Shown here piece after piece: positions 11,371 to 14,025 of a DNA stretch of 64,000 nucleotides. The stretch is from Escherichia coli (GTDB lineage: Bacteria > Pseudomonadota > Gammaproteobacteria > Enterobacterales > Enterobacteriaceae). Where the stretch lies: assembly GCF_022846255.1 (NCBI RefSeq), contig NZ_AP025682.1. The stretch is one strand, 5' to 3'. The stretch's first letter is position 1; every line of letters begins with the position of its first letter. The position numbers were made by a program, and so were the translations under genes. Below the pieces are notes generated by a model. It worked only from the letters and a program-made list of their open reading frames with translations. It did no database searches and was not told the origin of the DNA.

Positions 11371-14025
11371 ATGTGTATGCCTAATCACTCAAATTTTCGG
11401 CTGCGGGGAATCGCCTGCTATATTGCGCTGGCAATCTCTGGTGGGTCAGTCAATGCATGGGCTGATGATTCAATTCAATTTGACCCCCGTTTCCTTGAGT
11501 TAAAGGGCGATACGAAAATTGATCTCGGTAAGTTTTCAAAAAAAGGGTATGTCGACGCGGGTAAATATAATTTACGTGTATTTATAAATAAACAACCCCT
11601 TTCTGATGAATACGACATTAACTGGTACGTCTCTGAAAACGATCCAACAAAAACTTATGCCTGCCTGACACCTGAGTTAGTGGCGGCGCTGGGGCTGAAA
11701 GAAGGGATAGCAAAAAGCCTGCAGTGGACGCACAACGATGAATGCCTTAAACCGGGGCAATTAGACGGGATGGAAGTCGAGAATGATTTAAGCCAGTCGG
11801 CGTTGCTGCTGACAGTGCCACAGGCTTACCTCGAATATACCAGCAGCGACTGGGACCCTCCCTCACGCTGGGACGACGGTATTCCTGGCCTGATTGCCGA
11901 CTACAGCCTCAATGCGCAAACTCGCCACCAGGAGCAGGGGGGCGAGGACTCACATGATATCAGCGGCAACGGTACCGTTGGGGCGAACCTGGGGGCATGG
12001 CGTTTCCGTGCAGACTGGCAAAGTGATTATCAGCACACCCGCAGCAACGATGACGACGATGACAGCAGTAACAGCACAACGAGTAAACACTGGGACTGGA
12101 GTCGTTATTACGCCTGGCGAGCCTTGCCCTCTTTAAAAGCGAAGCTGTCGCTGGGGGAAGATTATCTCAATTCCGATATTTTCGACGGCTTTAACTATAT
12201 CGGCAGCAGCGTCAGCACCGATGACCAGATGCTGCCGCCCAACCTGCGCGGCTATGCACCGGATGTTTCCGGCGTGGCGCACAGCAGTGCAAAAGTCACC
12301 ATTAGCCAGATGGGCCGGGTACTTTACGAAACCCAGGTTCCAGCCGGGCCATTCCGCATTCAGGATATCGGCGACTCCGTCTCCGGCACACTGCACGTCC
12401 GCGTTGAAGAACAGAATGGTCAGGTGCAGGAATATGACGTTACGACCGCATCTATGCCATTCCTCACGCGCCAGGGGCAGGTGCGTTACAAAGTGATGAT
12501 GGGGCGTCCGGAAGACTGGAACCACAAGACCGAAGGCGGCTTTTTCTCCGGCGGAGAAGCGTCATGGGGGGTGGCAGATGGCTGGTCGCTTTACGGTGGT
12601 GCGCTGGCAGATAAACACTATCAGTCGGCGGCGATGGGGGTGGGGCGCGACCTCGCACAGTTTGGCGCGCTGGCGTTCGATGTGACTCACTCGCACGTCA
12701 ACCTGGATCATGACAGCGCATACGGCAAAGGAAAACTGGACGGCAACTCCTTTCGCGTGAGCTATGCCAAAGACTTTGACGAACTCAACAGCCGCGTCAC
12801 CTTTGCAGGCTACCGTTTCTCCGAAAAGAACTTCATGACCATGAGCGAGTATCTGGACGCGAACCAGTCGGACATGGCGCGGACCGGTAACGACAAAGAG
12901 ATGTATACGATCACCTATAACCAGAACTTTGCCGCTGCGGGTGTCTCTATCTATCTCAACTACTCCCATCGTACTTACTGGGATCGCCCGGAACAGACAA
13001 ACTATAACCTGATGTTTTCCCACTATTTTAATATGGGGAGCATTCGCAACATGAGCATCTCGGTGACCGGCTATCGCTACGAATATGACGATAATGCGGA
13101 TAAGGGGATGTACCTCAGTATGAGCATTCCGTGGAGCGACAGCAGCACCGTGACCTACAACGGTTCCTACGGCAGCGGGTCGGACAGCAGCCAGGTCGGT
13201 TACTTTAAGCGCGTCGATGACGCAACGCACTACCAGGTTAACGTTGGCACCAGCGAGCAGCACGGCAGCGTGGATGGTTATCTGAGCCACGACGGTTCGC
13301 TGGCGAAGGTTGATCTCAGCGCCAACTACCATGAAGGGGAATACCGTTCGGCGGGGATCGCCTTACAGGGCGGGGCAACGCTGACCGCGCATGGTGGGGC
13401 GCTGCACCGTACCCAGAACATGGGCGGCACGCGCCTGCTGATTGACGCCGACGGGATTGCCAACGTGCCGGTCGAAAGCAACGGCGCGCCGGTGTACACC
13501 AATATGTTTGGCAAGGCGGTGGTCGCCGATATTAACAACTACTATCGCAATCAGGCGTATATCGATTTAAACAACTTGCCGGAAGATGCGGAAGCCACCC
13601 AGTCGGTGGTGCAGGCGACTCTGACGGAAGGCGCAATCGGCTATCGTAAATTCAAAGTGATCAGCGGGCAAAAAGCGATGGCGGTACTGCGGTTGCGTGA
13701 CGGTAGCTACCCGCCGTTTGGCGCGGAAGTGAAAAACGACGAGCAGCAGCAGGTTGGCATTGTGGATGATGAAGGCAATGTCTATCTGGCGGGGGTCAAT
13801 GCGGACGAGCATATGATGGTGTTCTGGGAAGGCAGCGCACAATGCGAGATCGTATTGCCGAAGCCGCTACCTGCCGATTTGTTCAGCGGCCTGTTGTTGC
13901 CGTGTGAACAAAAGGGAACGGCAGCCCCTGATTCTTCAGCGCCAGAAATTAAGCCTGTTATTCAGGACCAGACGCGGCAAGTCACACCAACGGAAGCGCC
14001 GACGTCAATTTCAGCAACTCAATAA
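11371..14025 (+). CDS. yfcU: Fimbrial outer membrane usher YfcU (apparently intact, 884 aa)
   Basis: Single uninterrupted 884-codon frame with signal peptide and usher-like beta-rich composition; sits between subunit and chaperone genes as in Pap-like operons. Confidence 0.85.
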   Translation: MCMPNHSNFRLRGIACYIALAISGGSVNAWADDSIQFDPRFLELKGDTKIDLGKFSKKGYVDAGKYNLRVFINKQPLSDEYDINWYVSENDPTKTYACLTPELVAALGLKEGIAKSLQWTHNDECLKPGQLDGMEVENDLSQSALLLTVPQAYLEYTSSDWDPPSRWDDGIPGLIADYSLNAQTRHQEQGGEDSHDISGNGTVGANLGAWRFRADWQSDYQHTRSNDDDDDSSNSTTSKHWDWSRYYAWRALPSLKAKLSLGEDYLNSDIFDGFNYIGSSVSTDDQMLPPNLRGYAPDVSGVAHSSAKVTISQMGRVLYETQVPAGPFRIQDIGDSVSGTLHVRVEEQNGQVQEYDVTTASMPFLTRQGQVRYKVMMGRPEDWNHKTEGGFFSGGEASWGVADGWSLYGGALADKHYQSAAMGVGRDLAQFGALAFDVTHSHVNLDHDSAYGKGKLDGNSFRVSYAKDFDELNSRVTFAGYRFSEKNFMTMSEYLDANQSDMARTGNDKEMYTITYNQNFAAAGVSIYLNYSHRTYWDRPEQTNYNLMFSHYFNMGSIRNMSISVTGYRYEYDDNADKGMYLSMSIPWSDSSTVTYNGSYGSGSDSSQVGYFKRVDDATHYQVNVGTSEQHGSVDGYLSHDGSLAKVDLSANYHEGEYRSAGIALQGGATLTAHGGALHRTQNMGGTRLLIDADGIANVPVESNGAPVYTNMFGKAVVADINNYYRNQAYIDLNNLPEDAEATQSVVQATLTEGAIGYRKFKVISGQKAMAVLRLRDGSYPPFGAEVKNDEQQQVGIVDDEGNVYLAGVNADEHMMVFWEGSAQCEIVLPKPLPADLFSGLLLPCEQKGTAAPDSSAPEIKPVIQDQTRQVTPTEAPTSISATQ

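Follow-up and report, generated by a model that had tools for sequence, protein, structure and literature searches.

A run of five aspartates and a Pro/Thr/Ser-rich C-terminal tail stand out in the translation of an usher gene carried by a 64,000-nucleotide stretch of the Escherichia coli contig NZ_AP025682.1 (hereafter the window). We asked whether these two segments are variable loops or linkers that mark differences between strains, as the initial annotation had proposed, or whether they are ordinary features of the family to which the usher belongs. For the tail, we also asked whether any part of it is held constant, and what such a part might do.

An usher of the yfc operon

The plus-strand ORF at 11371-14025 translates into 884 residues without internal stops and ends in the stop codon at 14023-14025. 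Its alternative ATG at 11371 lies two codons 5' of the PGAP start (11377), and residue numbers given here follow the 882-residue PGAP numbering unless the 884-residue ORF is named. The features of the gene and its neighbors are collected in Table 1.

Table 1. Features of the usher gene and its neighbors in the window, with conserved positions of the tail
Feature	Position	Strand	Remarks
Major fimbrial subunit gene (yfcV-type)	10730..11296	+	directly 5' of the usher gene
Usher gene (yfcU orthologue)	11377..14025	+	882 aa; PGAP start in the 99.7% identical genome MS20657
Loop between strands β3 (aa 208-222) and β4 (aa 234-250)	12043..12075	+	AF2 model, DSSP
Asp5 run	12049..12063	+	GAT GAC GAC GAT GAC; GATGACGACGATGAC
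Conserved Cys pair of C-terminal domain 2	13843..13905	+	C823 = 13843-13845, C843 = 13903-13905
39-aa tail after C-terminal domain 2	13906..14022	+	EQKGTAAPDSSAPEIKPVIQDQTRQVTPTEAPTSISATQ; Pro/Thr/Ser/Ala/Gln-rich; presumed periplasmic
Conserved island, P860-V-I862-Q863-D-Q865-T866 … P871 … P875-T-S-I878-S879	13954..14013	+	from clade column counts
P860			conserved in 46/47 clade members
Aliphatic residue at 862			conserved in 47/47 clade members
Q863			conserved in 46/47 clade members
Q/H/N at 865			conserved in 47/47 clade members
T866			conserved in 42/47 clade members
P871			conserved in 35/47 clade members
P875			conserved in 44/47 clade members
S879			conserved in 39/47 clade members
PapD-like periplasmic chaperone gene (yfcS-type)	14045..14797	+	start 19 nt past the usher stop
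Three minor fimbrial subunit genes and StfH/YfcO-family adhesin gene	14814..17164	+	annotation of a near-identical locus, translations

The gene had been named as a YfcU usher, and that identification holds. The protein is approximately 100% identical to a protein cluster (P0001) of 3,733 members, for which the usher N-terminal domain, barrel and C-terminal domain (PF13954, PF00577 and PF13953) are precomputed. Of the 15 NCBIfam usher models that match it, NF011812 (PRK15284) scores 1836.2 bits (cutoff 972), with residues 1-882 aligned to positions 1-881 of an 881-position profile; because this coverage runs end to end, the tail falls inside the curated model. The score against NF011804, the equivalog model for Ste-type ushers, stays below its cutoff (1103 versus 1371 bits), and the Ste-type ushers are thus a related family other than that of the usher studied here. 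Besides the whole-protein score, the tail core P-φ-[IL]-Q-x-Q-T at residues 860-866 places the protein in the NF011812 subfamily, the presence of the core being a working criterion of this analysis rather than one taken from a publication.

The genomic context agrees with this identification. Between sixA and smrB lies a complete operon that encodes, in order, a major subunit, the usher, a chaperone, three minor subunits and an adhesin, and this locus is the yfc locus. The nearest NCBIfam models for the upstream major subunit are StfA and SteA, both of which it matches below the cutoff, and those for the chaperone are StfD and SteC. The domains, the fold, the Cys pair and an operon that also encodes a PapD-like chaperone and subunits, which are the features of PapC/FimD-type ushers that we looked for, are all present. 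The ORF is thus an intact usher of a yfc chaperone-usher fimbrial operon of the Stf/Ste-like kind, and a known gene.

We found two very different versions of this locus in E. coli. Of 5,426 complete E. coli genomes, about 1,220 (CE10 and SF-088 among them) carry, at ≥95% identity, the divergent allele class to which the window belongs, while O157-type genomes have only about 77% nucleotide identity to the locus of the window. Synonymous divergence between the two classes is saturated (dS 1.3-2.5). The YfcU of K-12 and O157, which belongs to the cryptic Yfc fimbriae and to NF011812, is encoded in the same sixA-smrB locus with the same operon order, has a similar length (879-881 versus 882 residues), and likewise possesses an acidic loop and the tail motif (IKPVIQEQTQQVTP). 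It is, however, only 77-78% identical in amino acid sequence, and its loop and tail flanks are unlike those of the window in sequence. In the literature, a review mentions YfcU solely as an usher that depended on TAM in pulse-chase assays of assembly (PMC11014939), and yfcV, the major-subunit gene of the same operon, serves as a marker of UPEC (PMC10288081).

Beyond E. coli, the closest named relatives are Salmonella StfC, whose operon adjoins fhu and which is 57% identical to the usher, and the Ste-type usher that matches NF011804, whose operon adjoins mazG/relA and which is 54% identical. Their operons share the order of major subunit, usher, chaperone and three subunits, and the proteins share the acidic loop. 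Their tails, at 41-60 residues, contain the core P-L-[LI]-Q-x-H-T-Q but differ from that of the window in flanks and length, and in some Salmonella lineages in-frame deletions remove the tail core and leave the distal …LSSR… part in place.

To place the segments on a structure, we used an AF2 model of the full-length usher that was built from a 100-sequence alignment and has a mean pLDDT of 82.6. Its best Foldseek matches are the PapC and FimD structures (E 5e-69 to 1e-49), with TM scores of 0.87-0.96 over the pore and 0.86-0.93 over C-terminal domain 2. The architecture is that of a standard five-part usher, with an N-terminal domain, a 24-strand barrel, a plug, and C-terminal domains 1 and 2. 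By sequence, the best solved homologue is PapC, the usher of the P pilus (PDB 7lhg, 2vqi, 3fip and 3l48; E 1.8e-209, 41% identity), with which the usher shares the domain order and the Cys pair and on which the model superimposes with TM scores of 0.93-0.96 (pore) and 0.86-0.93 (C-terminal domain 2). FimD, the usher of the type 1 pilus (PDB 3rfz, 6e14 and 9bog), shares the fold and architecture at 26% identity. Both cysteines, C823 and C843 (residues 825 and 845 of the 884-residue ORF), are invariant in the 100-sequence usher alignment.

The C-terminal tail and its conserved island

The initial annotation had described a low-complexity, Pro/Thr/Ser-rich tail after the conserved Cys pair, and this description is accurate for the 39 residues that follow C843. 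Pro, Thr, Ser, Ala and Gln make up 64% of the tail versus 30% of the body, or 25 residues against a maximum of 17 in any 39-residue window of the body, and the tail has none of the residues Phe, Trp, Tyr, Leu, Met and Cys, which account for 22% of the body. Judged by this comparison with the body, the character of the tail exceeds chance. Residues 848-882 have pLDDT values below 50 (34-41) and no secondary structure in the full-length model, and the tail is accordingly predicted to be disordered.

A tail of this kind is rare among ushers at large. The 117 full-length usher representatives with at most 46% identity to the protein have a median of 1 residue beyond the second Cys, and only 3 of them have a tail of more than 20 residues, which is absent from the other 114. 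PapC terminates 3 residues past the second Cys and therefore has neither tail nor motif, and the alignment of FimD stops at query residues 834-838, so FimD also lacks the tail. Among the nearest relatives (49-55% identity; Serratia, Yersinia, Photorhabdus, Erwinia and others), tails range from 2 to 47 residues and have no sequence in common, and the motif described below was not found in the tails of the close relatives from Serratia, Yersinia and Photorhabdus. A long tail with a common core occurs only in the ushers of Escherichia Yfc, Salmonella Stf, the Ste type, and related Enterobacter, Klebsiella and Citrobacter operons.

We next considered how the tail sequence behaves within this group. 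In a neighbor-joining tree of the protein body, the ushers that bear the motif make up one clade, in which they represent 48 of 58 tips, and this distribution suggests that the motif had a single origin. The ten motif-less tips nested in the clade amount to at least 5 separate losses or truncations, one of which is a loss of the motif in an otherwise intact Salmonella operon. Since it has been lost repeatedly inside the clade, the motif is not indispensable.

On a 47-sequence alignment of the clade, variability along the protein, taken in 10-residue segments, is highest at residues 873-882 and 849-858, which flank the tail center, and at residues 225-234, which contain the aspartate run. The suggestion that these segments are candidate variable loops or linkers is therefore borne out for the aspartate run and the flanks. 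As an account of the entire tail, a low-complexity linker falls short, because the center of the tail is a conserved motif that the initial annotation overlooked. By its alignment columns, this center is an island of about 20 residues, with the consensus P-φ-[IL]-Q-x-Q-T…P…P-x-x-φ-S, set between fast-evolving Pro/Thr/Ser/Ala spacers. Five core positions are retained in 42-47 of the 47 sequences, down to 52% overall identity (Table 1). Between the two E. coli allele classes, dN is 0.07-0.19 in the island and 0.13-0.14 in the body, versus 0.29-0.47 in the tail flanks, and the island is thus as constrained as the folded body.

As to the source of the tail, we examined whether it could be a translated ancestral intergenic spacer, and found no support for this idea. 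In some tail-less relatives the Cys codon and the start of the chaperone gene are a comparable distance apart, but this distance ranges from 10 to 186 nt, and three-frame translations of the spacers nowhere resemble the motif.

What the tail may do

The explanation that we favor, and consider somewhat more probable than its alternatives combined, is that of a yfc usher with a surface loop L2 and a clade-restricted, disordered tail that contains the conserved island and serves as a tether. According to this explanation, the tail would be a flexible periplasmic tether, and the tether would present a short linear motif to a partner in fimbrial assembly. We looked in the searchable literature for yfcU and its usher, for C-terminal extensions or tails of ushers, and for Stf and StfC, and these searches returned nothing on the tail and no experiments on it; because of this, the functional part of the explanation is purely inferential, and we consider that part less likely than not. 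Purifying selection on a motif located after C-terminal domain 2 suggests an interaction specific to the clade. In its most pointed form, which we regard as rather unlikely to be correct, the proposal is that the island would dock a partner whose part in chaperone-usher assembly has so far gone unrecognised; this could be a chaperone-subunit complex, the other protomer in an usher dimer, or a periplasmic factor encoded outside the operon. If it were correct, ushers of the Yfc, Stf and Ste types would have, besides their five canonical domains, a sixth element with a function. The mechanism of ushers was worked out on PapC and FimD, both of which are tail-less. The gene itself matters little, and the conserved motif in its tail raises only a modest question, one that can be put to experiment.

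Sequence comparisons and models did not point to a particular partner. Among the other proteins of the operon, neither the chaperone nor any of the five subunits showed a motif-like stretch, and the tail peptide had no match among PDB sequences even at E ≤10. Nor does the full-length AF2 model place the tail against any domain of the usher itself.

The main rival, to which we assign an appreciable but clearly minor probability, is that the tail is a functionally neutral, tolerated, disordered appendage whose motif is under weak or indirect constraint, for instance through solubility or protease resistance. The tail is disordered and undocked in both AF2 runs (that of the usher and that with the chaperone, described below), the independent losses or truncations in the clade include one in an otherwise intact Salmonella operon, and motif-free tails are common in the nearest relatives, all of which would fit a neutral appendage. 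The pattern of substitution argues the other way. A neutral sequence would drift, yet the five core positions are kept while no part of the protein varies more than their flanks, and the dN of the motif equals that of the folded body despite saturated dS.

A second alternative is a specific version of the tether, in which the motif would bind the cognate chaperone or chaperone-subunit complex at the C-terminal domains and thereby hold or release incoming complexes. C-terminal domain 2 contacts chaperone-subunit complexes in the FimD and PapC structures, and it is from this domain that the tail exits. Moreover, the chaperones of the motif clade have signatures that are theirs alone, namely Pro as the fourth mature residue and an extension, V-[DN]-E-x-[QK]-[ST]-[RS]-K, at the C terminus. 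These signatures nevertheless remain in the Salmonella locus whose usher has lost the motif, and since they outlast that loss, the co-occurrence of chaperone signatures and motif may be merely phylogenetic. In an AF2 model of a fusion of the mature chaperone, a (GGS)10 linker and the tail, the chaperone had pLDDT values above 90 over most of its length, but the tail (pLDDT 31-43) was not docked on it; this is a weak test, as it used the free chaperone with no subunit, a shallow pairing of 11 rows (from 11 loci) beside 20 unpaired rows, and pLDDT and secondary structure as the readout. Altogether, we consider this version unlikely.

Finally, conservation of the tail could stem from an element in its nucleotides, such as a translation signal for the chaperone, or from a second reading frame laid over it, such as the ORF at 13904-14797, but we consider this exceedingly improbable. 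The tail does end only 19 nt short of the chaperone gene, and an ORF that begins with GTG does overlap it in the frame of the chaperone. The motif codons, however, vary synonymously between loci, with differences at the third position of nearly every one (CCT/CCG/CCC/CCA, GTT/GTG/GTC, ACG/ACC/ACA). Upstream of the chaperone, its frame is open for 76 codons in this allele alone, and 9 of 10 other loci have just 1-4 open codons there; the antisense frames contain stops. An overlapping gene was ruled out by the restriction of the chaperone-frame ORF (13904) to this allele, together with the antisense stops. Purifying selection on the island acts at the level of the protein, not the DNA.

The acidic run and the β3-β4 loop

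The aspartate run lies exactly where the initial annotation had placed it, and corresponds to residues 225-229, or 227-231 of the 884-residue ORF. When the usher protein was shuffled, a run of five aspartates appeared in 513 of 200,000 shuffles (0.26%), and by this rarity the run exceeds what composition would produce by chance. DSSP assigns six strands that precede the plug in the AF2 model (residues 171-185, 191-205, 208-222, 234-250, 255-263 and 273-280), and the plug itself spans residues 297-357. The run forms the tip of the hairpin between the third and fourth of these strands, and the turns at 206-207 and 251-254 on either side of this hairpin are short. According to the published topology of PapC, the N-terminal domain resides in the periplasm, and the plug interrupts the barrel between β6 and β7. 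With the same topology, the β3-β4 loop would be the extracellular loop L2, an assignment of orientation that comes from counting strands and not from a residue-by-residue superposition.

The strands that flank the loop are nearly invariant in 45 homologues (WR[LF]RADWQ and W[DE]WSRYYA[WY]RAL). Across the clade the loop itself varies in length and sequence and retains an excess of Asp and Glu in these homologues. It reads SNDDDDEFGGDD in K-12-type YfcU and ENDSEDKDNFG in Salmonella Stf, and is a short QTGSGQ in the Serratia relatives. In PapC, the corresponding loop lacks the acidic character (…YNGEKTTNRNF…) and has 6 residues fewer. Between the two E. coli allele classes, dN in the loop is 0.24-0.44 versus 0.13-0.14 in the body, or approximately 2-3 times the substitution rate of the body. 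In these respects the loop behaves as would be expected of a weakly constrained, surface-exposed segment, and it may contact cations or LPS, or face pressure from immunity or phages.

Among seven close alleles of the window's class, the run occurs as DDDDD, as DDEDD (THO-003) and as DDEDDD (CE10), the last of which is the sole in-frame indel in the gene. That this lone indel falls within the aspartate run could hint at a slippage-prone contingency tract that varies in phase or length. We consider such a tract very unlikely, however: the run is an imperfect repeat, a mixture of GAT and GAC over its five codons, the codon inserted in CE10 is GAA rather than a repeat unit, the variation in length across species is made of unrelated residues, and in-frame changes cannot switch expression.

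What, then, of the proposal that the two segments mark strain-specific differences? E. coli alleles do differ at the aspartate run, but an acidic loop and a long tail are common to the Yfc/Stf/Ste subfamily. Nor are the segments conserved throughout the wider family: PapC and FimD have no such tail, and what extends across the subfamily is the character of the segments, while their sequence varies. Because they are subfamily-wide and are covered by NF011812, the acidic loop and the tail are ordinary features of a subfamily whose gene is already known, and not peculiarities of a strain. No part of the protein varies more than the acidic loop L2 and the flanks of the tail, which nevertheless makes them usable as lineage markers.

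Divergence and possible mosaicism of the yfc operon

We found that the yfc operon, in its entirety, forms a hyperdivergent allele block: it shares 40-83% identity with the O157-type locus, whereas the flanking genes fadJ, sixA and smrB-prmB are 94-99% identical. Between the two E. coli allele classes, the usher reaches a dS of 1.3-2.5, far above the divergence usually seen within a species. In the tree, the window's usher allele clusters with an E. albertii usher rather than with YfcU of K-12.

In a three-way MAFFT alignment, which gives approximate values, the usher is 99-100% identical to that of MS20657, the closest complete genome, but the minor-subunit and adhesin genes are just 62-94% identical (200-nt windows). 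This pattern suggests mosaic recombination in the portion of the operon that encodes the tip and the adhesin.

Features of the yfc operon and their window coordinates
Feature	Coordinates	Description	Source
Hyperdivergent allele block	~10170-17570	Entire yfc operon	Identity to O157-type locus versus flanks
Usher start, first ATG	11371	In frame, two codons before the second (MCMPNHS…)	ORF list and initial annotation
Usher start, second ATG	11377	In frame	PGAP
GTG ORF	13904-14797	297 aa; chaperone frame, open upstream across usher tail	ORF list
Chaperone gene (+)	14045-14797	PapD-like, yfcS-type
Divergent stretch of the minor-subunit and adhesin genes	14850-16980		Three-way MAFFT

The usher start differs between annotations by the choice within an in-frame ATG pair. 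An extended chaperone, as the 297-aa GTG ORF would encode, was considered and rejected. Upstream of the chaperone its frame stays open for 76 codons in the window allele, but for just 1-4 codons in nine of ten other loci, so this ORF is a mechanical artefact.

Usher tail and chaperone signatures

Two signatures are common to the chaperones of the motif-bearing clade (the window's gene and those of loci L002-L009 and L088-L090) and missing in tail-less relatives. The first is a mature N-terminus of the form [SA]-[VI]-x-P-DRTR, with Pro rather than Leu at position 4; the second is a C-terminal extension after the last Cys, V-[DN]-E-x-[QK]-[ST]-[RS]-K.

The usher tail motif has been lost in places. 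Several Salmonella-type ushers (clusters P0066, P0068 and P0069 at locus L090, together with P0078 and P0084) have had the P-x-[IL]-Q-x-Q-T core removed by in-frame deletion, and still have the distal part of the tail, …P-[ED]-x-L-S-S-R…. The ushers of P0076, P0088 and P0091 carry an apparent frameshift inside the motif. At a Salmonella locus whose usher has lost the motif, the chaperone retains both signatures.

Disrupted and probably misassigned ushers

A number of E. coli genomes encode a broken usher (H9 at locus L084, H13, H14 and H22; clusters P0034 and P0100). In strain EC13, a G-run at about nt 2026 of the gene (near window position 13400) bears a 1-nt insertion, and in AVS0970 and CMZE063 the usher is interrupted by IS1. 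Clusters of usher proteins truncated at the N- or C-terminus have 100-260 members.

Escherichia-type YfcU was also found in two MAG bins of other genera: on a 1.8-kb contig assigned to Collinsella (L046, JAIJJM010000660.1; 77% identity to the window protein) and on a 7.4-kb contig assigned to Citrobacter (L011, DXKH01000145.1; 99%). Both are likely binning errors rather than true occurrences.
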